Below, in pieces: positions 7,899 through 26,855 of a stretch of DNA of 45,395 bases; position 1 is the stretch's first letter, and each line of letters opens with the position of its first letter. The notes beneath the pieces are model-generated. The model saw only the letters and a list, made by a program, of their open reading frames with translations. It searched no databases and had not been told where the DNA came from. Both the position numbers and the translations under genes were made by a program. Source of the DNA: an uncultured bacterium (GTDB lineage: Bacteria; Patescibacteriota; Minisyncoccia; Phycocordibacterales; PALSA-1337); the NCBI GenBank assembly GCA_903870315.1, contig CAIQCJ010000032.1, positions 1-45,395 of the forward strand. The letters run 5' to 3'.

Positions 7899-8513
7899 AT
7901 GTATTTAGCCGACGAAGATATAAAGAGAGCATTGAAAGATGGTGAGATCATCATAAACGATTTCGATGAAGCACGTTTGCAGCCAGCCAGCTACGATATT
8001 TTGCTTGGCAATAAGTTTATAGTGAGCAATACAGAGTCGACTATGGCTATAGATCCAGTGAATAAGATATTTCCTCAAACAAAAGAGATTGTCATAGGTG
8101 ATGATGAGATGTTTGTACTTCATCCTGGCATCAGTATTCTTGGAACCTCGGTTGATTATTTCGGTTCAGATAAATACCTCATACACCTCTCTGGTAAGAG
8201 TAGTTTGGCTAGGTTGGGGCTTATTATCCATAATACTGCCGGTATTATAAATCCGGGTCATTTTCTCAACATTACTTTTGAGCTATGCAATCTAAATCAC
8301 GTGCCTATTATCCTTCGACCACAGATGCGTATAGGTCAGATTCTTTTCTCGCAACTTACTAGTCAGCCGAAGAAGGATTATAAGACGACAGGAAGATATC
8401 ATGGACGCGATTGGCAACATTTCGTCGATCCAAAAGATGAAGAAGGAAAAGAAAAGATAAAAGAGGAAAGCAAAAAGTTGAAAGTTAAAAAGGGAAAGAA
8501 GGCGAAGAAATAG
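7899..8513 (+). CDS. dcd: dCTP deaminase (dUTPase superfamily) with Lys-rich C-terminal tail
   Basis: MYLADEDIKRAL...LQPASYDILLG, HLSGKSSLARLGLIIHNTAG and RIGQILF are typical of Dcd. About 30 extra residues of a K/E-rich tail (KEKIKEESKKLKVKKGKKAKK). Confidence 0.85.
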   Translation: MYLADEDIKRALKDGEIIINDFDEARLQPASYDILLGNKFIVSNTESTMAIDPVNKIFPQTKEIVIGDDEMFVLHPGISILGTSVDYFGSDKYLIHLSGKSSLARLGLIIHNTAGIINPGHFLNITFELCNLNHVPIILRPQMRIGQILFSQLTSQPKKDYKTTGRYHGRDWQHFVDPKDEEGKEKIKEESKKLKVKKGKKAKK

Positions 8514-8535
8514 TTTTATAAAGTAAATAAATAAT

Positions 8536-9492
8536 ATGAATCACCCAGAACAACAATATCTAGATCTTCTCAAGGATATTATGGAAAATGGGGTATTGAA
8601 GCATGATCACAACACCAGCGTCGGTTTGACTAGTGTCTTCGGTCGCCAGATGCGTTTTGATCTTTCCAAAGGTTTTCCTCTTCTGACTACGAAGAAAGTT
8701 CCTTGGAATAGTATTATGCATGAGTTGTATTGGTTCATGTCTGGTCAGACCAATGTTAAGTATCTCGTCGATCACAAGGTTCCTATCTGGACAGATTATC
8801 CTTACAAGATTTATAAGAAAAAAGCCGACAAAGGCGCGTTGCCTGCAATTACTCTAGAAGAATTTTCAGAGAAGATAAGAACTGATGAAGCTTTTGCGAA
8901 AGCTCATGGTGAACTTCCTCGCATATACGGTGAACAATGGAGAGCTTGGCCAGCTGCAGATGGTCGCAAGATAGATCAACTTTCTTGGGTTATAGATACA
9001 TTGAAGAATTTTCCAGAGCGCAAACACGCCATACTTTCTGCTTGGAATCCTCCATTTCTTTATGCTATGGCGAAACCAGGAGAAGCATTGGCATATCCTT
9101 TGTGTCATATTCTTTTCCATTTCAATGTTTCAGGAAATAAACTCTCGTGCTGTTTGTATCAGAGATCATGCGATATGTTTCTTGGTGTTCCATTTAACAT
9201 AGCGAGCTACGCTGCTCTCACCATGATCGTTGCGAAGATTTGTGGATATGAACCTGGAGAATTTATTCATACACTTGGTGACGCACATATTTACGAGGAT
9301 CATATGGAGCAAGTGAAAGAGCAGATAAAGAGGGAACCAAAGAAGTTTCCGAAGCTTGTTTTGAGTGATGAAATCAAGGATCTGGACAGTTTCCGTCCAG
9401 AGATGGTTACTCTCACTGAATACGATCCACACCCACTTCTTAAGGCTAAGATGACTGTAGCTGGAGGGTTTGATGAGAAGGATAGGAAATAA
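8536..9492 (+). CDS. thyA: Thymidylate synthase ThyA
   Basis: EQQYLDLLKDIMENG, SVFGRQMRFDL, LTTKKV, LSAWNP, PLCHILFHF, YQRSCDMFLGVPFNIASYA and HTLGDAHIYEDH are canonical ThyA motifs, including the catalytic Cys. Confidence 0.95.
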   Translation: MNHPEQQYLDLLKDIMENGVLKHDHNTSVGLTSVFGRQMRFDLSKGFPLLTTKKVPWNSIMHELYWFMSGQTNVKYLVDHKVPIWTDYPYKIYKKKADKGALPAITLEEFSEKIRTDEAFAKAHGELPRIYGEQWRAWPAADGRKIDQLSWVIDTLKNFPERKHAILSAWNPPFLYAMAKPGEALAYPLCHILFHFNVSGNKLSCCLYQRSCDMFLGVPFNIASYAALTMIVAKICGYEPGEFIHTLGDAHIYEDHMEQVKEQIKREPKKFPKLVLSDEIKDLDSFRPEMVTLTEYDPHPLLKAKMTVAGGFDEKDRK

Positions 9493-9639: not shown

Positions 9640-10848
9640 ATGAAAGACACACAAATAAAGAGACTCCTTGAGGCAGAGAAGAAACGTCAGAAAAAAGTCA
9701 TAAACCTTATTGCTTCTGAAAATTTTGTGTCTGCCGATGTTCTAGAAGCTCTCGGTTCAGAACTAACAAATAAATATGCGGAAGGATATTCTGGCAAAAG
9801 ATATTACGGTGGTAACGAGATAGTCGATAAGGTCGAAGATCTTTGTATCGAACGTGCATTGAAACTTTTTGGTCTTGATGCAAATAAGTGGCACGTCAAC
9901 GTACAGGCGCTTTCTGGTTCACCTGCGAACTTGGCTGTGTATGTCGGTGTATTGGGTTTGAAAAATGATGGCCAGCCACCAAAGATCATGGGTATGTCAC
10001 TCGATCATGGAGGCCATCTTACTCATGGTCACAAAGTTTCTGCTACTGGAAAATTTTTCACACAGGTTCCTTATGGTCTAGATCCTAAGACTGAGATGTT
10101 GAACTATGTTCAGCTTCGTGAGATAGCCATGAAAGAGAGGCCTGCTATTATCGTGGCAGGCTACACAGCATATCCACGTCGTATAGATTGGGCCAAGATG
10201 CGTGAGATTGCTGACGCTTGCGGAGCATTACTTATGGTTGATATGTCACATGTGGCCGGTCTTGTCGCTGGTGGGGCATATCCAGCACCATTTCCATACG
10301 CCGATATTGTGACCACGACTACTCATAAGACTTTGCGTGGTCCTAGGTCAGCACTTATATTTGTTCGCAAAGACGCCCGTGAACTTGATAAGAAAATAGA
10401 CAAGGCTGTTTTCCCTGGTTTGCAGGGTGGTCCTCATGAAAACCAGATTGCAGCAGTTGCTGTTGCTCTCAAGGAAGCCGCAAGTCCAGCTTTCAAGAAA
10501 TACGCACAACAGGTTGTAAAAAATGCCGCTGCTTTAGCCAATGAACTTCGTAATTGTGGCTGGAGACTTATTTCTGGTGGCACAGATTCTCATCTTATTC
10601 TCATAGATACTTGGAATAGCGGTGTGAAAAACGCCAAAGGTGCCGGCGCAGTTCCTGGAAAAGACGCCAGTGACAAACTTGAGAAAGTCGGCATCATTGT
10701 AAACAAAAATGGCATTCCATTTGATTCAAGATCACCAGTTGATCCGTCTGGTATTCGCATTGGTTCTGCCGCAGAGACTACTCATGGCAAAAAAGAGAAA
10801 GATTTTCGTGCAATAGCGAAAAAGATAGATGAGGTATTGAGGAAGTAG
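9640..10848 (+). CDS. glyA: Serine hydroxymethyltransferase
   Basis: LIASENFVS, LTNKYAEGYSGKRYYGG and TTTTHKTLRGPR (PLP-lysine motif) are diagnostic. Confidence 0.95.
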   Translation: MKDTQIKRLLEAEKKRQKKVINLIASENFVSADVLEALGSELTNKYAEGYSGKRYYGGNEIVDKVEDLCIERALKLFGLDANKWHVNVQALSGSPANLAVYVGVLGLKNDGQPPKIMGMSLDHGGHLTHGHKVSATGKFFTQVPYGLDPKTEMLNYVQLREIAMKERPAIIVAGYTAYPRRIDWAKMREIADACGALLMVDMSHVAGLVAGGAYPAPFPYADIVTTTTHKTLRGPRSALIFVRKDARELDKKIDKAVFPGLQGGPHENQIAAVAVALKEAASPAFKKYAQQVVKNAAALANELRNCGWRLISGGTDSHLILIDTWNSGVKNAKGAGAVPGKDASDKLEKVGIIVNKNGIPFDSRSPVDPSGIRIGSAAETTHGKKEKDFRAIAKKIDEVLRK

Positions 10849-10908
10849 GGATATTTGATTTTAGCCAATTTGGCGGATTTTTCGCTAACTTTCTGCTACA
10901 ATCATCCC

Positions 10909-12735
10909 ATGAAAGACGAAATCATAAAGATATTGCAAAAAACCTTTGAGCCACTTGGTATATCGGATATTTCGGTCGCCTTAGATTTTCCAGAAAATGC
11001 CGAATATGGTGACTATACTAGCAATGTGGCCATGATAAACGCCAAGAGGCTTGGTATGAAGCCTGTTGAATTGGCGACAAAGATCGTGGCAGATTTCGAC
11101 AAACTTGTAGCCAAGGCATCTTTGAAAGGTCTTATGAAATCAGTCAGTGTGGCTGGACCTGGATTTATTAATTTTACTTTGACCGCAGAAGCGGTTTCGA
11201 AGAATGTTCAGGAGATCTCAAGAGAGTTGAATGGCCCCAAAGGCTCAAATAGCTTAAAAGGCCAAATTTCAAATATCGGCGCTGGTAAAAAAGTTTTGAT
11301 AGAGTACTCGTCTCCGAATATTGCCAAACCTTTTACGGTCGGACATTTGAGGTCAACTATCATAGGTGATTCTATTGCGCGTATTTTGAGTGCTACTGGA
11401 TATTCTGTTATTCGTGACAACCATCTTGGTGACTGGGGAACACAGTTTGGGAAGCTTTTGGTGGCGATAGAAAAGTGGGGGGATGAATTTGGCGGACTCG
11501 ATGGCATCAAAAAGAGTGAAAATCCTATCAAAATACTTGTTGATCTTTACGTGAAGTTCCATGATGAGGTTGCGATTATGGAGGATTCTGAAGACGAAAA
11601 ATTGAAAACAGAAGCAGAAGAACTCGTTACTTTTGCTCGTGCCAAATCTAAAATATTGGAATCTGGTAAGGATCCGATAATTTCTGAAATTTGGAAGGTC
11701 TGCGTAGATCTTTCCATGCATGAGTTTGCCCTTATTTATACGAGACTCGGTGTGTCTTTTGATCCAAAGAGGGGAGATACGCAGATTGGTGAAAGTTTCT
11801 TTGTGACCCCAGATAAGATCAACCCAGTCAGAGATGCCTTGAATGCCAAAAATCTTTTGAAAGAAAGTGAGGGTGCCAAAGTTGTATTCTTTGGTAGTGA
11901 AGATCCAAAGTCATGGAAACTCCCTCCGCTTATAGTAGAGAAAAGTGACGGTACATCCATATATGCTACTCGTGATTTGGCCGCAGATTTATATCGAATC
12001 AATACATACGGTAAAGGTCTAATACTCATAAATGAGGTTGGTGCTGAACAAAATCTTTACTTCAAACAACTTATAGAAACTGAGACTATGCTTGGCTGGT
12101 TTACGAAAGGTCAGAGACTTCATATCGCCCACGGACTTTACAGGTTCAAGGATGGCAAGATGTCTACAAGAAAAGGTAAGGTCATCTGGCTAGGTGATAT
12201 TCTGGATGAAGCAGTTACTCGTGCTTCCAAGATAAATGCCGATAGTGCCAATGATGTGGCTGTGGCGGCTATCAAGTTCAATGATCTTAAGCGCGACAGT
12301 ATACAAGATATAGTTTTCGATTGGGATGAAATGATGAGTATGACCGGTGACTCTGGACCATATCTACAATATTCATGCGTGCGTGCCAAAGCCGTCATAG
12401 AGAAAGCGAAAGGGCTCGGCATAGTCGCGCATATTGGCCCTGGATCCGGTGAAGGTAGTACACGCCCAAAAATCGCCCAAATCGATCTTCTTGAAAGATA
12501 CCTGATCCGTTTTCAGTCGGTTGTCGAATTCGCCGGCGCATCATATAGACCGAATGTCATTGCCAACTATCTCATAAATCTGGCGGCGCTTTTCAACAGC
12601 TTCTATTCCCAAGTAATGATCGCTGATGCGAAAGACCCTATGGCAGCTTACAAAGTTGCTGTCACGCAGGCTTTTGCCATGACCATGGAGAGGGGATTAG
12701 ATCTATTGGGTATAAAAGTTCCGAAGAAGATGTAA
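10909..12735 (+). CDS. argS: Arginyl-tRNA synthetase
   Basis: EYSSPNIAKPFTVGHLRSTIIGD (HIGH-region variant), DGTSIYATRDLA, MSTRKG (KMSKS-like) and a DALR anticodon-binding C-terminus. The track ORF starts at TTG 10855; I prefer ATG 10909 (MKDEIIKILQ). Confidence 0.9.
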   Translation: MKDEIIKILQKTFEPLGISDISVALDFPENAEYGDYTSNVAMINAKRLGMKPVELATKIVADFDKLVAKASLKGLMKSVSVAGPGFINFTLTAEAVSKNVQEISRELNGPKGSNSLKGQISNIGAGKKVLIEYSSPNIAKPFTVGHLRSTIIGDSIARILSATGYSVIRDNHLGDWGTQFGKLLVAIEKWGDEFGGLDGIKKSENPIKILVDLYVKFHDEVAIMEDSEDEKLKTEAEELVTFARAKSKILESGKDPIISEIWKVCVDLSMHEFALIYTRLGVSFDPKRGDTQIGESFFVTPDKINPVRDALNAKNLLKESEGAKVVFFGSEDPKSWKLPPLIVEKSDGTSIYATRDLAADLYRINTYGKGLILINEVGAEQNLYFKQLIETETMLGWFTKGQRLHIAHGLYRFKDGKMSTRKGKVIWLGDILDEAVTRASKINADSANDVAVAAIKFNDLKRDSIQDIVFDWDEMMSMTGDSGPYLQYSCVRAKAVIEKAKGLGIVAHIGPGSGEGSTRPKIAQIDLLERYLIRFQSVVEFAGASYRPNVIANYLINLAALFNSFYSQVMIADAKDPMAAYKVAVTQAFAMTMERGLDLLGIKVPKKM

Positions 12736-13397: not shown

Positions 13398-14186
13398 ATG
13401 AAAAATGCGAGCGTTCCCAAAGTAGCAGAAGTGGTTCAGAGAGAGATCTCTGTGCAATGGCAAGCACAGATTAGTGCCAACCTTATCGTGGGGTCAATAC
13501 CGATCCTAAAACAACTGGGAAGATTCCCGCAATTGGCTCAGAAGCTTGCAGCCAAGCCGGAAGCTTGGACAGAGTTCCTGATGTCGGCATTGCCGAAGCG
13601 GATGGTTATCGGCCACAATGATGCGGAATATTGGGACCGGTATTATCAAAATGAGTTTGGCATCAAGGGCTCATTTGAGGGTCTCGAAATCCCAGCCGCT
13701 CCAGCTTATCCAGCATGGCTTGTTGTGATGCATGAACAGATCTCCAATCGGTGCAATCCGATAATGGAGGTTTGCAAAAAGCATTACCCGAAGTACTGGC
13801 AGTACACGAGCGATCTCGGCGCTTCGATCGTCAGACATGATCGGAGTGGGACATACGGAATCTGGGTCGCGGCTTCGCCGAGCGCTGAATTCGGAAATGT
13901 GGATGGTAAAAACTTGTCTAGCCAGGATGTTTGGGACAGGGGCATTATTACCACAACTCTGCCGGAGCGTCTGATTCTTGGTGATACGTTCTATTTGAAA
14001 AACCAAGATCATCTGGACAAAAATAAAATCAACCTCTGTCCAGGTTCGCGCAATTCCGACGGCAATGTGCCGAGTGTGAATCGGCACAACGACGACAATG
14101 TCAAGGTGAACTACTGGAATCCGCAGAATGCCGATGACAATCTGCGGTTCCGTCTGGAAATTTCTCGCAACAAGGGGCTTTCATAG
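13398..14186 (+). CDS. Putative DGR target (variable) protein with C-terminal CLec-like variable module
   Basis: 262-aa ORF, visibly more G+C-rich than its neighbours. The C-terminus CPGSRNSDGNVPSVNRHNDDNVKVNYWNPQNADDNLRFRL resembles the ...NRNNNPNNRNNNLGFR ends of DGR variable proteins. It lies next to Avd-like and DGR-RT-like ORFs. Confidence 0.5.
   Translation: MKNASVPKVAEVVQREISVQWQAQISANLIVGSIPILKQLGRFPQLAQKLAAKPEAWTEFLMSALPKRMVIGHNDAEYWDRYYQNEFGIKGSFEGLEIPAAPAYPAWLVVMHEQISNRCNPIMEVCKKHYPKYWQYTSDLGASIVRHDRSGTYGIWVAASPSAEFGNVDGKNLSSQDVWDRGIITTTLPERLILGDTFYLKNQDHLDKNKINLCPGSRNSDGNVPSVNRHNDDNVKVNYWNPQNADDNLRFRLEISRNKGLS
14052..14153 (+). other. Candidate DGR variable region (VR)
   Basis: Among these 34 codons, 9 are Asn (AAT/AAC) and 5 are Asp (GAC/GAT), plus CAC, TAC, TCC and GCC. 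That mix is what adenine-specific mutagenesis of AAY template codons would produce. No matching template repeat was found in this window. Confidence 0.35.
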
Positions 14187-14194
14187 CCCCTTTT
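14174..14194. terminator. Hairpin plus T-run at the 3' end of the target gene
   Basis: GGGGC-TTTCATA-GCCCC then TTTTGTG. The stop codon TAG (14184-14186) lies in the loop/stem. The position (immediately 3' of the VR-like module) mirrors the hairpin found downstream of DGR VRs. It also faces the convergent Avd-like ORF. Confidence 0.65.
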
Positions 14195-14197
14195 GTG

Positions 14198-14452
14198 TCA
14201 TATGTTTTGGCTACGCGCCACATAGTTTATCCAATTGGTCGCTTCTTTGGATATTTCAAAAAGTTTGGTAGAAAGACGTATATAAGTTTTATCATCGATG
14301 ATAAGTAATTCATTTTCTGTCCGAATCAGATTTTGTAGAACACCGATTTTTACACGCAATCTTTCCAGTGTCGGCTTCTTTAGGATTTTTATTTGAAATG
14401 ACCCTTCTATAGCCAGAGACAAAATGTTTATGCACAGCCGTTCTATTTCCAT
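14198..14452 (-). CDS. Avd-like four-helix-bundle protein (short, possibly 5'-truncated)
   Basis: 84 aa, all-helical. LERLRVKIGVLQNLIRTENELLIIDDKTYIRLSTKLFEISKEATNWINYV matches the C-terminal half of the DGR accessory variability determinant / 23S-IVS four-helix-bundle family. Typical members are longer. Confidence 0.55.
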   Translation of the reverse strand: MEIERLCINILSLAIEGSFQIKILKKPTLERLRVKIGVLQNLIRTENELLIIDDKTYIRLSTKLFEISKEATNWINYVARSQNI

Positions 14453-14527
14453 ATGTATTCCCAGCTTGTTGCTTTTCGATAGTTTTTGGCCGGTGTTGTA
14501 AATGTCTTTGTGTAGTATTCTTATACT

Positions 14528-15019
14528 ATGGATAATTGGGACAATTTGTTTGAACTTATAAAAAGGATTATTTTTTCATTCGAAAAGACCGGTGGAAAAG
14601 GCTTGCCACTTGGCAATGTTACTAGTCAGCTTTTCTCCGATATTTATCTCAATGAGCTGGATCAGTTTGTAAAACACGAACTAAAAGCAAAGTACTATAT
14701 TAGATATTGTGACGATTTTGTAATTTTAAATGACTCTTTGGATTACCTTGATTATTGTTTAGATAAGATTAGGGATTTTTGTTCGGAAAATCTGTTGGTA
14801 AATTTACATCCAGATAAAGTAGAGATACGTAAACTGAAAACCGGAGTAGATTTTCTTGGATATGTTTCCTTGCCACATTATAGAGTCTTGCGTACCAAAA
14901 CAAAGAGGAGGATGTTAAATAGAGTTTCGACAAAAAATGTGGCCTCATATTTAGGAATGTTGAAGCATTGCAAAGGAGAGAAAATAGAGGAACAAATTAG
15001 CAGATTATTTTTTGATTAA
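14528..15019 (+). pseudogene. N-terminally truncated DGR-type reverse transcriptase (motifs 4-7 and thumb only)
   Basis: GLPLGNVTSQLFSDIYLNELD carries the [I/L]GxxxSQ motif-4 hallmark of DGR RTs. YIRYCDDFVIL is the YxDD catalytic motif. Only 163 aa; an in-frame TAG at 14513 blocks upstream extension, and no RT motifs 1-3 appear in any upstream frame. Confidence 0.7.
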
Positions 15020-15040: not shown

Positions 15041-18000
15041 ATGAGTTCACATAGTGAGCGCGAAGAAAAGATGCTGGCCTTCTGGAAAGAGAAGGGTATT
15101 TTTGAGAAAACACTGGAGAAACCTTCTCCTAAAGGCGAATTTACTTTCTATGATGGCCCGCCATTTGCTACGGGCACACCTCATTACGGGCACTTGCTGG
15201 CTGGTACCATGAAGGATGTCATTCCGCGCTGGAAAACCATGCAGGGATATCACGTGGCTCGCCGATGGGGCTGGGATTGTCATGGTTTGCCAGTTGAGAA
15301 TCTCATAGAAAAGGAGCTCGGACTTAAGTCCAAGAAAGATATTTTTGAATATGGCATTGATAAGTTCAATGACGCTGCTCGTGCCAGTGTCATGCGTTAT
15401 GCTGACGAATGGCGCAAAGTTGTTCCACGTTTGGGGCGTTTCGTCGATATGGAGGATGATTATCGTACGATGGATGCCTCGTATACCGAAAGTGTCTGGT
15501 GGATATTCAAGAATCTCTATGACAAAGGTCTGATCTATGAAGGTTTCAAATCCATGAATCTTTGTCCACGTTGTGAGACGACTTTGTCGAACTTTGAAGT
15601 GGCACAGGGTTACAAGGACATAACAGATATTTCTGTATATGTGAAGTTTAGGATACCTGACTGGTACAAAGTTTTCTGGTCAAATGGTGGAAATGACCCG
15701 AAAAGCCAAAATAGAAATGTACAAGGTGTAAATGGAGCGCAGATAGCCACTTATCTTATAGCTTGGACGACGACGCCGTGGACTTTACCAGGGAATGTGG
15801 CTTTGGCGGTAAATCCAGATATTGATTATGTCAGGGTTAATTTAAGCACAATAACCAAAGATGATTCGGATACTATTGGCTCAGTAAGCGAAACATACTT
15901 GATAGCGGAATCACGTCTTGCGGTCATCTTGAAAGATAAACAATATGAGATTATCGAGAAGATAAAAGGTTCAGATCTTGTCGGTCTTTCATATGAACCT
16001 ATTTTCGATTGTTATCACAACGACAAAACCTTGAAGGATCGTGGAAATGGTTGGAAGATATATGGTGCAGATTTCGTGACAATAGAAGATGGTACTGGTA
16101 TCGTCCACATCGCTCCAGCATTTGGGGCAGATGACTACAGTTTGCTCCTCAAATACAATTTGCCTTTAGTACAACACGTGGCTGTCGACGGTACATTCAA
16201 GAAAGAGTTTACATCTAGCCCAGAGACTTCAGTCTTTTCTGGTCTACATGTGAAGCCTAAGGATACATCTGAAGACAAAAATGCTCACCAAAGTACTGAT
16301 ATTGAAGTTATAAAATGGTTGGCTCATAGTGGAAAACTTTTTGATAAAGAAAAGATTATACACTCATACCCACATTGTTGGCGCTGTGAGACTCCTCTTA
16401 TTAACTACGCCTCTTCTTCTTGGTTTGTGAAAGTCACCGATATCAAGGATAAACTGGTGGCAGCCAATAAGAAGATAACTTGGGTTCCAGAAGAACTTGG
16501 CGAAGGTCGTTTTGGTAATTGGTTAGAAGGTGCGCGTGACTGGGCTATATCTCGCTCACGTTTCTGGGGAGCACCGATACCTGTATGGAGAGAAGAAGGT
16601 GCAAGTGGTACGCAAGGTCCAAGCAATTTACATGTCATAGGATCTATAGCAGACTTCAAGAAATATTCTCATACAAAGAATACTTATTACGTGATACGTC
16701 ATGGAGAATCCGAAGGTAATGTGAAAGGCATATTGAGCACAGATATGAAGATAGTTCACCATCTGACAGACAAGGGTAGGGAGCAAGCAGCATCTGCCAC
16801 GGAAAACCTTAAAGGTATAGAGTTTGATCATGTATTTGTATCTCCGTTTGCACGTACTCAGGAGACTTACGAAGTTTTGGCTTCGAAGTTAGGTTGGGAC
16901 AAGAGTAAAATGATAACAGACGATCGTATAAGAGAGCTTGGAGGTGGTATATGGAATGGACGACTTATATCTGATTTCTTGGCTGAGTTTGAACATTCTG
17001 ACAGGTTCGAGAATGCTCCAGAAGGTGGAGAGAATTATACCGATATAAAAAAGAGGATGGGCGATTTCTTGTATGACATAGAAAACAGATACCAAGGTGA
17101 GACTATACTTATAGTTACTCACGAGACGCCGGCTTGGTTATTGTTCTCTGCGGCTATTGGAGCCGATAAAGCCTCATCTTTGGCCATGCGTGTCAGCGAC
17201 AGGAAGACTGGTGGTGATTTCTTGAAAAATGCCGAAGTGAAGAAGTTGGATTTTGTGCCTATTCCTCACAATAAAAACTATGAACTCGATCTACATCGTC
17301 CTTTCATAGATGAAATAGGATTGCGCGTTGATAATGGCAATAAACTCACTCGTGTGTCTGATGTTTTCGATTGTTGGTTTGAATCAGGCTCTATGCCATG
17401 GAGCTCAAATCACTATCCTTTCGATGGGGATATTGCTTATCCAGCTGACTTCATTGCTGAAGGTCAAGATCAGACCCGTGGCTGGTTCTACACCATGTTG
17501 GTCCTAGGTGTAGGCTTGTTTGGTACATCTCCATACAAGAAAGTCTTGGCCAATGGTCTTGTCCTAGCAGAAGATGGTGAAAAGATGTCCAAATCCAAGA
17601 AGAATTATCCTGATCCGATGCTTATAATAGATAAATACAGTGCAGATGCATTGCGCTATTATTTACTTTCTTCACCAGTAGTACGTGCACAAGACCTGTG
17701 TTTTAGTGAGAAAGGTGTAGATGAAGTGACGAAGAAGATTATCAATCGTATTCTAAATGTAGTCTCTTTCTATGAGATGTATGCAGGCGAAGGTGTAAAT
17801 GGGAGTACGCAAGATGAAAGTAAAATTACGAGCGAATCATGTGTCCGAAGCAAGAATGTTCTGGATCTCTGGATTAAGGCACGTCTAAATGAGACAATTT
17901 CTCAAATCACCGGTAGCTTAGAATCAGGAGAACTTGATCGCGCCTCGAGACCATTTATGGATCTTATAGATGATCTATCAACTTGGTATCTGCGTCGATC

Positions 18001-18781
18001 CCGCGACCGCTTCAAAGGAGATGATGTCTCAGACAAGAGCTCAGCCTTGGCAACTACAAAGTTTGTCCTCATAGAGACAGCTAAACTCATGGCCCCATTT
18101 ATGCCTTTTTTGGCAGAGGATATATATATCAGAGTTGGTAGAAACATCACCAGCAATAATTCAAATGCAGATATACTAGAAAGTGTTCATCTAGATTCTT
18201 GGCCAAAAGCCACGAAAGTTAATCAGCATCTTATAGATGATATGAAGTTGGTACGTTCAGTCGCTTCACAAGGACTGGAGGCTCGTATGACGGCTAAGAT
18301 CAATGTCCGTCAGCCACTTCAGTCTCTGAAGGTTGAACTGATCCAAGAGAAGATGTGGTATAGATCAGAAAGACAACTTGGTCCAGAATTTACGTCTATC
18401 ATTGCGGATGAAGTCAATGTCAAAGAGGTTCTATCTTCCATAAAACTGGTAAGGACGACCAGTGCAGGATCTAACAAAGCGAATACCATAGTCAGTAGTG
18501 TTGAGCTCGATACTTCTATCACCATAACATTGAGAGAAGAAGGTATGGTTCGTGAACTCATACGTGCCATACAGGATCTAAGAAAGACCAAAGGCCTTAC
18601 TATAAATGACAAAGCTACTATTATCATTGAGACCGACAAGACTGGTCACGGATTTATCGAAAAGAATAAAGATGTGATATCTCGTGCGACGCTGTTGAAG
18701 ATGATTGAGTGGGGAAGTGTTGATAGTTCAATAGATATCCTGAAAATAGGTGAGATGTATATTAAGATTGATTTGAGATAA
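15041..18781 (+). CDS. ileS: Isoleucyl-tRNA synthetase, type 2 (eukaryote-like), with an internal histidine-phosphatase domain
   Basis: FYDGPPFATGTPHYGHLLAG (HIGH), WTTTPWTLPGN (editing domain), WAISRSRFWGAPIPVW, DLHRPFIDEI, DCWFESGSMP and KMSKSKKNYPDP (KMSKS). 1246 aa, about 200 aa longer than usual because of the insert at 16685-17260. Confidence 0.95.
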   Translation: MSSHSEREEKMLAFWKEKGIFEKTLEKPSPKGEFTFYDGPPFATGTPHYGHLLAGTMKDVIPRWKTMQGYHVARRWGWDCHGLPVENLIEKELGLKSKKDIFEYGIDKFNDAARASVMRYADEWRKVVPRLGRFVDMEDDYRTMDASYTESVWWIFKNLYDKGLIYEGFKSMNLCPRCETTLSNFEVAQGYKDITDISVYVKFRIPDWYKVFWSNGGNDPKSQNRNVQGVNGAQIATYLIAWTTTPWTLPGNVALAVNPDIDYVRVNLSTITKDDSDTIGSVSETYLIAESRLAVILKDKQYEIIEKIKGSDLVGLSYEPIFDCYHNDKTLKDRGNGWKIYGADFVTIEDGTGIVHIAPAFGADDYSLLLKYNLPLVQHVAVDGTFKKEFTSSPETSVFSGLHVKPKDTSEDKNAHQSTDIEVIKWLAHSGKLFDKEKIIHSYPHCWRCETPLINYASSSWFVKVTDIKDKLVAANKKITWVPEELGEGRFGNWLEGARDWAISRSRFWGAPIPVWREEGASGTQGPSNLHVIGSIADFKKYSHTKNTYYVIRHGESEGNVKGILSTDMKIVHHLTDKGREQAASATENLKGIEFDHVFVSPFARTQETYEVLASKLGWDKSKMITDDRIRELGGGIWNGRLISDFLAEFEHSDRFENAPEGGENYTDIKKRMGDFLYDIENRYQGETILIVTHETPAWLLFSAAIGADKASSLAMRVSDRKTGGDFLKNAEVKKLDFVPIPHNKNYELDLHRPFIDEIGLRVDNGNKLTRVSDVFDCWFESGSMPWSSNHYPFDGDIAYPADFIAEGQDQTRGWFYTMLVLGVGLFGTSPYKKVLANGLVLAEDGEKMSKSKKNYPDPMLIIDKYSADALRYYLLSSPVVRAQDLCFSEKGVDEVTKKIINRILNVVSFYEMYAGEGVNGSTQDESKITSESCVRSKNVLDLWIKARLNETISQITGSLESGELDRASRPFMDLIDDLSTWYLRRSRDRFKGDDVSDKSSALATTKFVLIETAKLMAPFMPFLAEDIYIRVGRNITSNNSNADILESVHLDSWPKATKVNQHLIDDMKLVRSVASQGLEARMTAKINVRQPLQSLKVELIQEKMWYRSERQLGPEFTSIIADEVNVKEVLSSIKLVRTTSAGSNKANTIVSSVELDTSITITLREEGMVRELIRAIQDLRKTKGLTINDKATIIIETDKTGHGFIEKNKDVISRATLLKMIEWGSVDSSIDILKIGEMYIKIDLR
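16685..17260 (+). other. Histidine phosphatase (phosphoglycerate-mutase-like) domain inserted in IleRS
   Basis: YYVIRHGESEGN matches the PGAM-family phosphohistidine signature (h-x-R-H-G-E-x-x-x-N). It is followed by FVSPFARTQET (second Arg), RELGGGIWNG (acid Glu) and LIVTHETPAW (second His). It lies between IleRS motifs PIPVW (W516) and DLHRP (D750). Confidence 0.75.
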
Positions 18782-21418: not shown

Positions 21419-21442
21419 GCGTCTTTGATATACAATTCCACC

Positions 21443-22870
21443 ATGTCAAAAAATCAAGAAAAAAATGATTCACAGAGTGACGTCATGGATTCTATAGTGT
21501 CTCTTTGTAAAAGACGTGGTTTTATATTTCAAGGCTCTGAGATATATGGCGGACTCGCCGGTACATGGGACTATGCTCCTCTTGGAGTTGCCCTGAAAAA
21601 TAACATCAAGAAGATTTGGTGGAAGCGTTTTATAGATGATCGAGATGATATGTATGGTGTAGATGCAGCTATTCTCATGAATCAACGTACGTGGGAGGCT
21701 AGTGGTCACGTAGGTGGTTTCGCTGACCCATTGGTTGAATGCAAAAAATGCCAACATCGTTTTCGTGCTGATCAATTGATTGGTGAAGATGGTAAGCCGT
21801 CTAGTGTAGACGCACCAGTTAAAAAGTGTCCAGATTGTGGAGGTTCTCTTGGAGAAATTCGCCAATTCAATATGATGTTCAAAACACATATAGGTGCAGC
21901 CGAAGACGCATCAGCGGTTTCATATCTACGCCCAGAAACAGCTCAGGGTATGTTTGTGAATTTCAAAAATATCCTAGACACTTTCCACCCGACTTTGCCT
22001 TTTGGTATGGCGCAGATAGGGAAGGCTTTCAGAAATGAGATCGCGCCTCGTGACTTCCTCTTCCGTGCGCGCGAATTCGAGCAGATGGAGATCGAGTATT
22101 TCGTGAAGGCGCCCAAAGACACGAAAGATGACGGAAAATCTGAGGATGCAGCTGATGGTTGGCAAAAGGTTTTCGATGATTTTCGCCAGCAGATCCACGG
22201 TTTCATCGCCGATATCGGTTTGACCGCTTCGAAAGTCCACGAGTTGGAAGTTCCGGATGGTGAACGCGCGCATTACTCCAAGCGCACTATAGATTTCGAG
22301 TTTGATTTTCCATTTGGCAAAAAAGAGCTTTATGGTTTGGCCTATCGTACGGATTTTGACTTGAAGCAGCATGCTGAGTTTAGTAAAGTCGATCTTTCTT
22401 ATTATGATGAAGAGACCAAAGAGCGTTACGTGCCACATTGCATAGAGCCGTCATTCGGCCTCGACAGAACGGTTTTGGCTGTTTTGGCTGATGCCTACAC
22501 TGAAGATGCGATGAGTGATGAGAAGCGGGTATTTTTGAAACTAGCCCCAGCTGTAGCGCCTTATAAAGTCGCAGTTTTTCCGCTCTTGAAAAATAAACCG
22601 CTGCTGGTAGCAAAGGCTCGCGAAGTTTTTGCTACTCTGAAAGCTGAATTTGCAGAGGTCGGAATCCAAGGCGTCGCCTTTGATGATAACGGCAATATCG
22701 GCAAGCGCTATCGCAGACAAGATGAAGTTGGTACGCCATTTTGTGTAACTGTAGATTTCGATACTATCGAGAAAAGCGCCGGTGTCACCGTGCGCGATCG
22801 TGACTCAGGAAGACAGGAGCGAGTCGCTGAAGGGGAGTTGGTTGGATATTTATTGGGGAAAGTGAAATGA
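21443..22870 (+). CDS. glyQS: Glycyl-tRNA synthetase (class II, homodimeric GlyQS type)
   Basis: IVSLCKRRGFIFQGSEIYGGLAGTWDYAPLGVALKNNIK, YLRPETAQGMFVNF, GKAFRNEIAPRDFLFRAREFEQMEIEYF and IEPSFGLDRT. The track start is TTG 21425; I prefer ATG 21443. Confidence 0.9.
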   Translation: MSKNQEKNDSQSDVMDSIVSLCKRRGFIFQGSEIYGGLAGTWDYAPLGVALKNNIKKIWWKRFIDDRDDMYGVDAAILMNQRTWEASGHVGGFADPLVECKKCQHRFRADQLIGEDGKPSSVDAPVKKCPDCGGSLGEIRQFNMMFKTHIGAAEDASAVSYLRPETAQGMFVNFKNILDTFHPTLPFGMAQIGKAFRNEIAPRDFLFRAREFEQMEIEYFVKAPKDTKDDGKSEDAADGWQKVFDDFRQQIHGFIADIGLTASKVHELEVPDGERAHYSKRTIDFEFDFPFGKKELYGLAYRTDFDLKQHAEFSKVDLSYYDEETKERYVPHCIEPSFGLDRTVLAVLADAYTEDAMSDEKRVFLKLAPAVAPYKVAVFPLLKNKPLLVAKAREVFATLKAEFAEVGIQGVAFDDNGNIGKRYRRQDEVGTPFCVTVDFDTIEKSAGVTVRDRDSGRQERVAEGELVGYLLGKVK

Positions 22871-25301: not shown

Positions 25302-26855
25302 ATGTCCAAACCATTTTATATAACTACTACGTTGCCGTACGTTAATTCGATACCGCATATTGGTTTTGCGACTGAGATTATAAGAGCCGATTCTATCGCT
25401 AGATGGAAGAGAGCTTCCGGTTTTGAAGTATTTTCCAATACTGGTACAGATGAACATGGCCTCAAGATTTTTCAAAAAGCTAAGGAGGCTGGTATAGAGC
25501 CACAAGTCTATGTAGATCAAGTCGCTTCAAAATTCAAAGAACTCCTACCGATTCTTGGTATAAGTCCTGAAGTAAACTTTATCCGTACTACTGATAAGCA
25601 TCACACGAAAGCCGCTCAAACTTTTTGGCAACTTGTAGACAAGAATGGCTTCATATACAAGAAAAATTATTCAGTGAAATATTGTATCGGATGTGAGCTG
25701 GAGAAGACTGAGTCAGAACTAGTAGAAGGGAAATGTCCACTGCACCCACTCCAGTCTCTGGAGATTATAAATGAGGAAAATTATTTCTTCAGATTTAGTG
25801 CCTTTCAGGAACAACTATTAGATCTCTACGACAAAAGTAGCAGCTCCTCAGTAAACAATTCCACAGAGTCTTCAAGACAACCCTTTGTCATACCAGAATC
25901 TCGCCAGAGGGAGATTCGTGCTTTCGTCGAACGTGGTCTAGACGACTTCAGTATATCTCGTCTCAAGTCCAAGATGCCTTGGGGTATACCAGTACCGGAG
26001 GACGAAGAACAGGTTATGTATGTTTGGTTCGACGCCTTGGTCAACTACGTTTCCGCTGTCGGCTGGCCAGATGATGTCGTAGCTGACAAGGCTATGCCCG
26101 GCTCATTCAAAAAGTGGTGTGTAGAGACTGGTGGTATGGTTCAATATTGTGGCAAAGACAATCTTCGACAACAGTCGGCTATGTGGCAAGCTATGCTCTT
26201 AGCTGCAGGACTACCGACCTCGAAGACTGTCATTGTTGACGGTTTTGTAACGGCTGATGGTGGCGTGAAGATGTCTAAGTCTCTTGGCAATACAGTAGAT
26301 CCGGTTGCTCTAGTCAAAGAGTTTGGCACCGATGCTATGAGGTATTATTGTCTACACGAGCTTCATCCTTTCGAGGATAGCCCTTGTACAGTTGAGCGCT
26401 TTAAAGATGCTTACAACGCCAATCTAGCAAATGGTTTAGGAAATCTGGTGAGTCGAGTTATGAAGATGGCAGAGACTAGTGGTATAACTATTGCTGATAA
26501 GCTCAAAACATATGAAGACTCTTTAAAGTCTGGAAAATTTATTGTTTCTGCGATATTATCTACTGAATACATGGCTGGTTTAGAGGAGTATAATCTCAAA
26601 AAGTCCATGGATGCTATATGGTCTATCATAGCTGTGTCCGACAAACTCATACAAGTGAAGCAGCCATTCAAGTTAGTGAAATCTGAAGACGATAAAGACA
26701 AAGCCGATGGTAAATCATGTATAGAGACTTTGCTCAATAACATACATACTATAGGAGTTGCTCTACAGCCTTTTATGCCTACAACAGCTCAAATGATACT
26801 TGAGTGTATATATAACAACAAAATGCCTGCCACGCCACTCTTCTTAAGGAAATAA
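25302..26855 (+). CDS. metG: Methionyl-tRNA synthetase
   Basis: FYITTTLPYVNSIPHIGF (HIGH variant), one Cys knuckle (CIGC...CPLH), YVWFDAL and KMSKSLGN. Confidence 0.9.
   Translation: MSKPFYITTTLPYVNSIPHIGFATEIIRADSIARWKRASGFEVFSNTGTDEHGLKIFQKAKEAGIEPQVYVDQVASKFKELLPILGISPEVNFIRTTDKHHTKAAQTFWQLVDKNGFIYKKNYSVKYCIGCELEKTESELVEGKCPLHPLQSLEIINEENYFFRFSAFQEQLLDLYDKSSSSSVNNSTESSRQPFVIPESRQREIRAFVERGLDDFSISRLKSKMPWGIPVPEDEEQVMYVWFDALVNYVSAVGWPDDVVADKAMPGSFKKWCVETGGMVQYCGKDNLRQQSAMWQAMLLAAGLPTSKTVIVDGFVTADGGVKMSKSLGNTVDPVALVKEFGTDAMRYYCLHELHPFEDSPCTVERFKDAYNANLANGLGNLVSRVMKMAETSGITIADKLKTYEDSLKSGKFIVSAILSTEYMAGLEEYNLKKSMDAIWSIIAVSDKLIQVKQPFKLVKSEDDKDKADGKSCIETLLNNIHTIGVALQPFMPTTAQMILECIYNNKMPATPLFLRK

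Follow-up and report, generated by a model that had tools for sequence, protein, structure and literature searches.

A complete histidine phosphatase domain lies in frame within CP3 of the isoleucyl-tRNA synthetase (IleRS) encoded by the stretch of DNA analysed here (the window), 45,395 nt of contig CAIQCJ010000032.1, assembly GCA_903870315.1, from an uncultured bacterium (Patescibacteriota; Minisyncoccia; Phycocordibacterales; PALSA-1337). Much of the Parcubacteria shares this layout in conserved form, and the insertion exemplifies a wider habit of the Candidate Phyla Radiation (CPR), in which phosphatase, kinase, GNAT and hydrolase domains are embedded in IleRS or in valyl-tRNA synthetase (ValRS). 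We regard as secure both the architecture and its evolutionary origin from a gene that, in sister CPR lineages, directly precedes ileS. The explanation that best accounts for the whole, a PhoE-like phosphatase captured in CP3 and tied to the synthetic site of the enzyme, is put forward with about as much confidence as doubt.

A phosphatase domain within CP3 of a type-2 IleRS

The product of the uninterrupted ileS open reading frame (ORF; Table 1) is, as read from its sequence, the housekeeping, editing-competent type-2 IleRS of the organism, with a predicted role in aminoacylation. The whole protein scores 838 bits against the NCBIfam equivalog TIGR00392 (ileS; cutoff, 621.4), which identifies it as an IleRS. 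Its best solved relatives are the type-2 enzymes of yeast, human, Candida, Priestia and Thermus thermophilus, and in a search of the Protein Data Bank (PDB) the type-2 IleRS of yeast, human, Candida and Thermus scored 615-690 bits versus 264 bits for the type-1 enzyme of Staphylococcus aureus. The full class Ia architecture, including HIGH, KMSKS, CP1 to CP3, the anticodon-binding domain and DUF5915, is shared with the solved type-2 IleRS of Saccharomyces cerevisiae (7D5C/8WND), T. thermophilus (1ILE) and Priestia megaterium (IleRS2, 8C8U), with phmmer E-values for solved type-2 enzymes of 1e-183 to 5e-206. The order of Pfam domains in the ORF is tRNA-synt_1 in two stretches (E=3.4e-139) that flank His_Phos_1, followed by Anticodon_1 and by DUF5915 (E=1.4e-16), the latter taking the place of the bacterial Zn-binding domain and marking the type-2 subtype. 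An editing domain is recognised in CP1 also by a GTG(I/V)VH-type motif, GTGIVHIAPAFG, at residues 351-362, which is invariant in the alignment. With HIGH, the editing motif and KMSKS present, both halves of the IleRS are intact, as the initial annotation of this DNA had proposed.

CP3 varies more in structure than any other part of IleRS: Thermus has a Zn knuckle there, S. aureus has three helices, and Candida has a beta-beta-alpha-alpha element (PMC7191050). In the yeast enzyme it spans residues 459-526, and the preceding CP2-3 linker, ARDWNVSRNRYWG, lines the pocket for reveromycin A and the tRNA CCA end (PMC7955072). Whereas CP3 has ca. 60-70 residues in the known type-2 structures (beta-beta-alpha-alpha or Zn knuckle), that of the window protein is interrupted by an enzyme domain of ca. 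200 residues. Residues 519 and 749 align with residues 474 and 498 of yeast IleRS, which leaves ca. 24 residues between the aligned flanks in yeast, in agreement with the earlier statement that type-2 enzymes normally have only a short linker here. At the insertion point, the insert-less CPR orthologue reads '...GSIKELEKLSSVKVTDLHKHFID' and '...VVGSIKELEKLSSVKVTDLHKHFID', and the window protein reads '...VIGSIADFKKYSHTKN', then T548 to I741, then 'PHNKNYELDLHRPFID'. On the basis of the alignments to yeast and to insert-less CPR IleRS, the module consists of residues 548-741 plus an eight-residue return connector and replaces a CP3 loop of ca. four residues. The N-terminal elements of CP3 appear in the full-length AlphaFold2 (AF2) model as strands 515-519 and 530-532 and helix 536-542. 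The inserted interval had been annotated as 16589-17287; its end holds, whereas its first ca. 30 codons correspond to ordinary CP3, the module starting at nt 16682. The return connector has the consensus PLPHNxEYEL, is missing from both the free-standing phosphatase P0260 and the insert-less IleRS of locus L081, and shows a predicted local distance difference test (pLDDT) score higher than 90 in the AF2 model of the insert alone.

By its profile match, its R-H-R-E-H residues and its modelled fold, the insert is a branch-1 histidine phosphatase, apparently an active one, its activity being predicted from the family. His_Phos_1 (PF00300) matches residues 550-716 with E=4.5e-33, covering positions 2-169 of the 194 in the profile, and the 115 bits obtained against a gathering cutoff of 21.7 settle the profile check that had been recommended. 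The insert-only AF2 model has a pLDDT of 89 and a predicted TM-score (pTM) of 0.86. In an alignment with the 120 closest homologues, R553, H554, G555, N560, S601, P602, R605, T609, E632, E664, R672 and H694 are invariant, although the mean identity to the query is 51% in the insert and 67% in the remaining IleRS. This invariance of the catalytic residues in a diverging insert indicates purifying selection on a working active site rather than on a spacer. The conservation check thus bears out the claim of a complete domain with every catalytic element, and every motif quoted originally is present where stated, at W516, R553-H554, R605, E632, H694, D750, PHYGH (47-51), WTTTPWTLP (242-250) and KMSKS (848-852).

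Compared with the insert-less CPR orthologue, the window IleRS has two other short lineage-specific segments, both of low confidence. The first, 'PDWYKVFWSNGGNDPKSQNRNVQGVNGAQIA', lies just ahead of the editing domain (15650-15745; residues ca. 205-235), and the second, 'GVNGSTQDESKITSES' (17795-17842; residues ca. 919-934), is located in the loop between the SC-fold and the anticodon domain, which is the host site of a second phosphatase or kinase domain in IleRS of the Gracilibacteria type.

Recurrence in CPR synthetases and free-standing relatives

PF00133 and PF00300 were found together in all of the 120 closest homologues (52-100% identity), so that the survey of orthologues, which had been called for, rendered the same insertion throughout. 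These homologues were drawn from NCBI, JGI, ENA and Logan, some of them on contigs longer than 500 kb, and those with a named source are ascribed to Taylorbacteria, Paceibacterota, Parcubacteria or 'Patescibacteria group'; an identical protein is encoded on an independent ENA contig. A scan for relatives in which each GTDB species was represented by one genome rendered at least 328 genomes with a relative. The insert-bearing IleRS frame was present in 77 of 80 fetched loci, the 77 being those with a traceable reading frame, and the gene order SHMT - ArgRS - IleRS - RecO - DUF11 protein - class-II aminoacyl-tRNA synthetase (aaRS) - M16 peptidase is kept. Such recurrence, among all 120 homologues and across at least 328 genomes of different species, rules out misassembly or chimerism. 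The initial description of an in-frame histidine phosphatase domain inside IleRS, and not of an end-to-end fusion or an artefact, is therefore upheld by the uninterrupted ORF, by the location of PF00300 between the two tRNA-synt_1 halves, and by recurrence.

With the insert alone as query, word-indexed searching reached distant free-standing phosphatases (28-43% identity) and nothing of the IleRS family; the close free-standing relatives and the proteins with several inserts came to light only through an exhaustive profile search. The insert profile, searched against 1.84 billion representative proteins, rendered 310 clusters at E<=1e-30, and the wider pattern described below comes from this profile search together with a homologue search seeded with one multi-insert protein. 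IleRS of the Gracilibacteria, Peregrinibacteria and Peribacteria types also contain His_Phos, often at other positions. Single placements were located between KMSKS/SC-fold and the anticodon domain (42 proteins), in CP3 (38) or between CWFESG and DQTRGWF (5), alongside ca. 15 IleRS that have two or three copies and 13 that lack the domain. Different lineages use at least four distinct sites: CP3 offers two of them, a third is located between CWFESG and DQTRGWF, and a fourth separates KMSKS from the anticodon domain. Each of these sites flanks elements of the synthetic site. In Gracilibacteria and Peregrinibacteria, one to three His_Phos domains per IleRS are found between CP3 and the anticodon domain. 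In 242 aaRS with a complete N-terminus, 270 His_Phos domains were counted, none of which begins before residue 455 and all of which lie downstream of WGxPxP; a terminal fusion, at either the N or the C end, was found in none of these 242 proteins. The R, H, R, E, H pentad is kept in every extra inserted copy and in the free-standing relatives, the R and H of the RHG motif being present in all inserted or free-standing relatives whose N-terminus is available. Six near-identical double-insert IleRS of 1419 aa come from separate assemblies, one of them on a contig of 1.06 Mb.

Other domains have been accommodated as well. In P0376, His_Phos is replaced at the CP3 site by a non-homologous HAD phosphatase; the HAD domain of relatives gives weak or generic PDB matches and matches to COG0546 phosphatases. 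P-loop kinase domains of the AAA_33/zeta-like type accompany His_Phos in the IleRS P0377, P0392 and P0398, their best PDB match, a weak one (E=6e-4), being the RNA-repair kinase Pnkp1 (4XRP). GNAT domains are present in P0398 and in many other CPR IleRS, and GNAT and His_Phos coexist in P0229, P0315 and P0398. A Ser_hydrolase domain is inserted in CP3 of the IleRS P0366, and a Ser_hydrolase gene (8332-8841) adjoins an insert-less ileS (P0378) in locus L091, which is the same duality of neighbour and insert as that of the phosphatase. Selfish-looking DUF559 endonuclease or IS200-like Y1 transposase domains lie in frame in P0392, P0328, P0398 and P0229, and the presence of nuclease and transposase domains in IleRS suggests that some insertions began as mobile elements. 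The multi-domain IleRS of Gracilibacteria, Peregrinibacteria and Peribacteria reach 1859 aa. Embedded His_Phos domains are found in ValRS as well (start of ValRS in L092, 12319-13204, and in L093, 9725-10610); one such ValRS, of 1337 aa, lies 4 kb from an insert-less IleRS (P0382), and a ValRS-like fragment (P0169) has four copies.

Complete free-standing relatives of ca. 190-210 aa were among the profile clusters. For three of them (profile E=1e-44 to 1e-47), an insert-less ileS follows downstream at a distance of 2 bp (P0260), 8 bp (P0274) and 119 bp (P0277), with synteny argS-HP-ileS-recO, the succession argS-...-ileS-recO being shown by the two longer contigs; the synteny of the window itself agrees with this arrangement. 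Another one, P0273, directly follows argS, and its downstream gene is cut. In a neighbour-joining tree, which has long branches and is indicative only, the ileS-linked free-standing genes are sister to the canonical CP3 inserts. The relation is of the 'Rosetta-stone' kind, with separate neighbours in one lineage and a single polypeptide in another.

Type of phosphatase and possible roles

The solved proteins closest to the insert by sequence are the metal-independent phosphoserine phosphatase iPSP1 (4IJ5, 7e-15), PhoE/YhfR (1EBB/1H2E, 1e-14), TIGAR and CobC. With the insert model, the top Foldseek matches were iPSP1 (4ij6), PhoE (1h2e) and 9mmh, with E-values of ca. 1e-13, and the probability of 1.00 obtained for iPSP1, PhoE, CobC, TIGAR and cofactor-dependent phosphoglycerate mutases (dPGMs) indicates that the insert has the alpha/beta fold known from dPGM and PhoE. 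Foldseek also matched a phosphatase of the riboflavin pathway (9MMH) and mycobacterial GpgP. According to the model, the nearest structural kin are thus the small-molecule phosphatases of the PhoE, phosphoserine phosphatase and CobC kinds. PhoE (YhfR) of Geobacillus stearothermophilus and iPSP1/PspA of Hydrogenobacter thermophilus share with the insert the fold, a size of ca. 200 aa, the R-H-R-E-H set and the LxExxxGxW(E/N)G cap motif (phmmer E ca. 1e-14; Foldseek E ca. 1e-13, target-normalised TM-score 0.69-0.75). They differ from it in that identity is only 21-28%, the insert lies within another enzyme, and its second catalytic His is followed by D/E-T-P instead of the usual Gly.

The label 'PGAM-like' initially given to the domain is misleading and is better replaced by PhoE-like phosphatase; the domain sits with PhoE, PspA, CobC and TIGAR. 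The best NCBIfam match, archaeal dPGM (NF038349), reaches 97 bits against a cutoff of 225, TIGR01258 (pgm_1) 22 against 81.7, and the remaining dPGM models 17-53 against 261-421. The mutases of E. coli and yeast have specific substrate residues in two places, with Arg and Tyr behind the acid Glu in the motif E-R-x-Y, and with G-N behind the second His in H-G-N; in the insert, E632 is followed by L/I/M-x-x-G, not Arg, the mutase Tyr is missing, and H694 is followed by D/E-T-P, not G-N. By scores and residues alike, the domain is no dPGM. Among the specific phosphatase equivalogs, CobC (TIGR03162; 73.7 against 162.9), PspA (68.8 against 350), PRK13463 (58.5 against 277) and GpmB (53 against 261) also remained below cutoff. 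Since every NCBIfam equivalog cutoff is missed, the insert is not an orthologue of any characterised enzyme. SixA is a short, cap-less domain of ca. 155 aa; its model (TIGR00249) gave 33.8 against 74.5 and matched only the first 75 residues; the insert has ca. 190 aa and a cap. The fold, which is neither HAD (DxDxT) nor metallophosphoesterase, excludes the RNA end-healing phosphatases of the PNKP type. The 'RF...PEGGE' pocket signature is common to generic members of the family and gives no clue to the substrate.

One polypeptide would carry three catalytic sites, for aminoacylation, CP1 editing and phosphomonoester hydrolysis. At the third of them, His554 would accept the phosphoryl group, Arg553, Arg605 and His694 would hold the phosphate, and Glu632 would supply the proton to the leaving group. 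The sequences themselves show these residues to be present, intact and conserved; their phosphohistidine chemistry is presumably that of the histidine phosphatase family.

Whether the phosphatase is functionally coupled to the IleRS/ValRS synthetic site or is a passenger is a question on which we consider coupling evenly balanced against its negation. Coupling is suggested by the confinement of independent insertions to the segment from CP3 to the anticodon domain without any of the 'easy' N-terminal fusions, by the convergence of a HAD phosphatase on the CP3 site, by the substitution in ValRS, and by operon adjacency. The absence of terminal fusions is relevant because the loss of the stop codon of the upstream gene is the easiest route to a fusion. 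In addition, the connectors are conserved and well ordered, which favours a fixed pose of the phosphatase, and the attachment point of the insert, ca. 38 residues beyond the CP2-3 linker, belongs to the subdomain that emerges from this linker of the CCA pocket. The phosphatase might then dephosphorylate a ligand of the nucleotide type on its way into or out of the synthetic active site. Our leading guess for such a ligand would be a 2'/3'-(pyro)phosphorylated tRNA acceptor end, which otherwise could not be charged, and the second a nucleotide by-product or analogue at the adenylate site (AMP, pyrophosphate, ATP-derived). Branch-1 histidine phosphatases remove the terminal phosphate from single-stranded DNA and ATP in vitro (PMC2737285), which makes tRNA ends and nucleotides chemically plausible substrates, and the pairing of the phosphatase with a P-loop kinase in some CPR IleRS counts toward the plausibility of RNA ends. 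The choice of any specific substrate is tentative at best, and the candidates would rank, from more to less probable, as tRNA acceptor end, nucleotide by-product or analogue, unrelated metabolite, phosphorylated inhibitor and phosphoprotein. Three roles had been speculated upon initially, namely the removal of 3'- or 2',3'-cyclic phosphates from damaged tRNA ends, the hydrolysis of a phosphorylated nucleotide by-product or alarmone, and the inactivation of a phosphorylated inhibitor; in the light of the new context, a functional tie to IleRS/ValRS is likely, with no preference for any of the three. It could also be the case, although we deem it rather unlikely, that the CPR class Ia synthetases (IleRS and sometimes ValRS) are scaffolds for a third, 'end-healing' site that strips a 2'/3'-phosphate, a cyclic phosphate or a toxin-added pyrophosphate from the tRNA acceptor end directly on the synthetase, which would make damaged or poisoned tRNA chargeable; to this site some lineages would add a Pnkp-like kinase, a GNAT or a serine hydrolase. 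If true, no histidine phosphatase before it would have acted on RNA ends, and the aaRS would contain a novel type of tRNA quality control or of counter-defence.

Several observations weigh against a role at the synthetic site. The full-length AF2 model (residues 1-1140) is only moderate (pLDDT 74.6, pTM 0.60) and leaves the phosphatase pocket unplaced with respect to the tRNA path; a PhoE-like cap (residues 632-664) covers the active site and suits a small substrate; and the characterised close relatives use small metabolites, namely phosphoserine, 3-phosphoglycerate (3-PG), alpha-ribazole-P, Fru-2,6-P2 and glucosyl-3-PG. Net charge and pI give little guidance on RNA binding, the inserts being about neutral, with no obvious RNA-binding signature, and the free-standing relatives ranging from -16 to +17; we know of no histidine phosphatase that acts on RNA ends in vivo. 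Up to three or four copies, placed in different parts of the surface, speak against a single exact geometry, and a bias toward permissive loops could explain the distribution of sites without coupling. Finally, one free-standing relative (P0281) adjoins recO with no ileS in between, and three others (P0284, P0293 and P0294) are located elsewhere in their genomes and not beside ileS.

The capped pocket, the close structural relatives, all of them small-molecule phosphatases, the several copies in various loops and the free-standing relatives encoded elsewhere would all fit a passenger metabolic enzyme, an alternative that we hold possible and somewhat doubtful. A broad-specificity phosphatase (for sugar phosphates, phosphoserine or salvage nucleotides) would have been captured from an operon neighbour, and its embedding in an essential, constitutive gene would provide co-expression and protection from loss in a shrinking genome, with no link to aminoacylation. 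The finding of the unrelated Ser_hydrolase both beside ileS (L091) and inside it (P0366), which suggests that ileS absorbs its neighbours, and the fact that reading frames of CPR IleRS also take in DUF559 and IS200-like domains of selfish appearance point in the same direction. A passenger would leave unexplained, however, why insertion recurs independently in IleRS and ValRS and not in other essential genes, why none of the 242 proteins has a terminal fusion, why a HAD phosphatase converged on the CP3 site, why a ValRS carries the domain where the IleRS of the same genome lacks it, and why the connector is conserved. The phosphatase could instead act at its target as a detoxifying activity, inactivating a phosphorylated or phosphoramidate aminoacyl-adenylate mimic or another inhibitor of IleRS/ValRS, as the GNAT, serine hydrolase and kinase domains would do in relatives. 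A parallel is provided by the microcin C-type antibiotics, which are defeated by the MccE/RimL acetyltransferases, the MccF peptidase and HinT phosphoramidases. GNAT, alpha/beta serine hydrolase, P-loop kinase, His_Phos and HAD are all classes of antibiotic-modifying enzymes, His_Phos and GNAT are combined in P0229, P0315 and P0398, and a curated NCBIfam family, 'ileS_w_GNAT', exists. We nevertheless find this improbable, because stable, universal retention in an order-level clade (120 of 120 homologues, at least 328 species) resembles housekeeping rather than an arms race, histidine phosphatases cleave phosphomonoesters whereas the known adenylate mimics have another linkage, and we know of no phosphorylated IleRS inhibitor.

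Still lower is the probability that we assign to a regulatory module, in which the domain would dephosphorylate IleRS itself or a partner (e.g. targets of HipA-type kinases) or form a kinase/phosphatase switch such as that of PFK-2/FBPase-2. The superfamily includes the protein phosphatases PGAM5, Sts-1 and SixA, and kinase and His_Phos domains occur together in P0377, P0392 and P0398; against this, the SixA score falls well short of its cutoff, the nearest structures are metabolite phosphatases with capped pockets, and the window protein has no kinase partner domain. A moonlighting glycolytic function, the insert being the cofactor-dependent phosphoglycerate mutase of the cell, could be proposed from the best NCBIfam match to archaeal dPGM, but it is at least as improbable, since scores are far under the equivalog cutoffs and mutase residues are missing, and it would be hard to square with multiple copies in IleRS/ValRS and with a HAD analogue at the CP3 site. 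A chimeric assembly or an inert structural filler of CP3 has practically no probability left: the variability of CP3 among IleRS (PMC7191050) makes a structural replacement conceivable in principle and is all that speaks for it, whereas the layout is shared by independent assemblies (NCBI, JGI, ENA, Logan) that number in the hundreds, with contigs longer than 500 kb among them, the catalytic residues are invariant over ca. 50% sequence divergence, and GC content is flat across the insert, with no compositional break.

No paper describing or explaining a histidine phosphatase embedded in an aaRS was found in the full-text literature searched. The initial statement that no such synthetase had been described holds to this extent, and is qualified by the automatic annotation of JGI, which already names some relatives 'isoleucyl-tRNA synthetase/phosphohistidine phosphatase SixA/...'. 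Of the nearest precedents, the RNase HI/acid phosphatase of actinobacteria (Rv2228c type, PRK07238), the second-best NCBIfam match of the insert (80 bits against a cutoff of 326), joins a nucleic-acid enzyme to a CobC/PhoE-like phosphatase, but end to end and with RNase H as partner, whereas the phosphatase in the window is an internal insertion and its partner is an aaRS. The PNKP enzymes (T4 Pnkp, Pnkp/Hen1, Pnkp1-Rnl-Hen1) offer only a possible functional analogy, that of a phosphatase, in some CPR IleRS with a P-loop kinase, at RNA termini; their phosphatases have HAD or metallophosphoesterase folds, non-homologous to the insert, and no ligase partner was seen in CPR IleRS. GNAT-bearing IleRS (NF040702, ileS_w_GNAT) and the appendages of eukaryotic aaRS are precedents for extra domains, but the window protein scores 332 against the NF040702 cutoff of 1999, has no GNAT, and bears its phosphatase within the catalytic core and not as an appendage. 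None of these precedents is a catalytic domain inserted in the core of a synthetase. As far as we know, aaRS are among the most conserved enzymes and their catalytic cores almost never gain enzymatic domains. Recurrence of the kind found here, at different sites, in ValRS, with a HAD domain and with an operon neighbour, usually marks a real functional dependency. It would imply a phosphate-removal step linked to the charging of Ile- and Val-tRNA that is not known in model organisms, with tRNA-end repair, counter-defence against tRNA-modifying toxins and processing of nucleotide by-products as candidate meanings. CP3 and neighbouring loops tolerate insertions of 200 residues, which could be useful for aaRS engineering, and the finding is a handle on the biology of the uncultivated, ultra-small bacteria of the CPR.

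Other features of the window

The window is rich in translation genes, and no tRNA gene was found in its 45 kb. The features located in it are collected in Table 1.

Table 1. Location of ileS, of the elements of its product and of other features in the window
Feature	Residues	Positions (nt)	Strand	Evidence or remarks
ileS, 1246-aa type-2 (eukaryote/Thermus-like) IleRS with insert		15041..18781	+	uninterrupted ORF; TIGR00392; PDB matches
HIGH signature PHYGH	47-51	15179..15193	+	P47, H48 and G50 invariant in a 43-sequence alignment
CP1 editing motif WTTTPWTLP	242-250	15764..15790	+	W242, T243-245, W247, T248, L249 and P250 invariant in the 43-sequence alignment
CP2-CP3 linker ARDWAISRSRFWG	498-510	16532..16570	+	translation; at 38 residues from the insert
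N-terminal part of CP3 (hairpin and short helix)	511-547	16571..16681	+	aligns with insert-less IleRS up to '...GSI.E..K.S'
Inserted histidine phosphatase (His_Phos_1, PhoE-like)	548-741	16682..17263	+	Pfam, AF2, Foldseek
Arg553-His554 of the RHG motif (His554, predicted phospho-acceptor nucleophile)	553-554	16697..16702	+	120 of 120 homologues
Arg605, second Arg of the phosphate pocket	605	16853..16855	+	120 of 120 homologues
Glu632, predicted general acid	632	16934..16936	+	120 of 120 homologues; same alignment column as the catalytic Glu in PhoE and iPSP1
His694, second catalytic His	694	17120..17122	+	120 of 120 homologues
Return connector PHNKNYEL	742-749	17264..17287	+	P742 in 119 of 120, H743 in 115, N744 in 117, E748 in 116
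C-terminal IleRS part: remaining CP3 (DLHRPFID), CWFESG, KMSKS, anticodon-binding domain, DUF5915		17288..18781	+	Pfam, PDB alignment, translation
CWFESG		17372-17389	+	translation
KMSKS	848-852	17582-17596	+	translation; conserved among homologues
Thymidylate synthase		8536-9492		upstream of ileS
SHMT		9640-10848		upstream of ileS
ArgRS		10855-12735		ordinary length, no extra domains
262-aa ORF of the retroelement-like cassette		13398-14186	+	no Pfam match
84-aa bAvd-like four-helix-bundle ORF		14198-14452	-	E=4.8e-4
Truncated reverse transcriptase, C-terminal half of RVT_1 including YCDDF		14528-15019	+	E=6e-11
Class-II ProRS-like synthetase		21425-22870		ordinary length, no extra domains
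MetRS		25302-26855		ordinary length, no extra domains

Between argS and ileS lies a degraded cassette that resembles a diversity-generating retroelement (13398-15019), in which a search for a template/variable repeat pair found none. The reverse transcriptase fragment has homologues in only three of 80 related loci and is therefore a lineage-specific insertion. Farther downstream, in a 905-aa ORF (37739-40456), only residues 352-498 match an LCAT/DUF676-type serine esterase, the other ca. 750 residues having no Pfam match.

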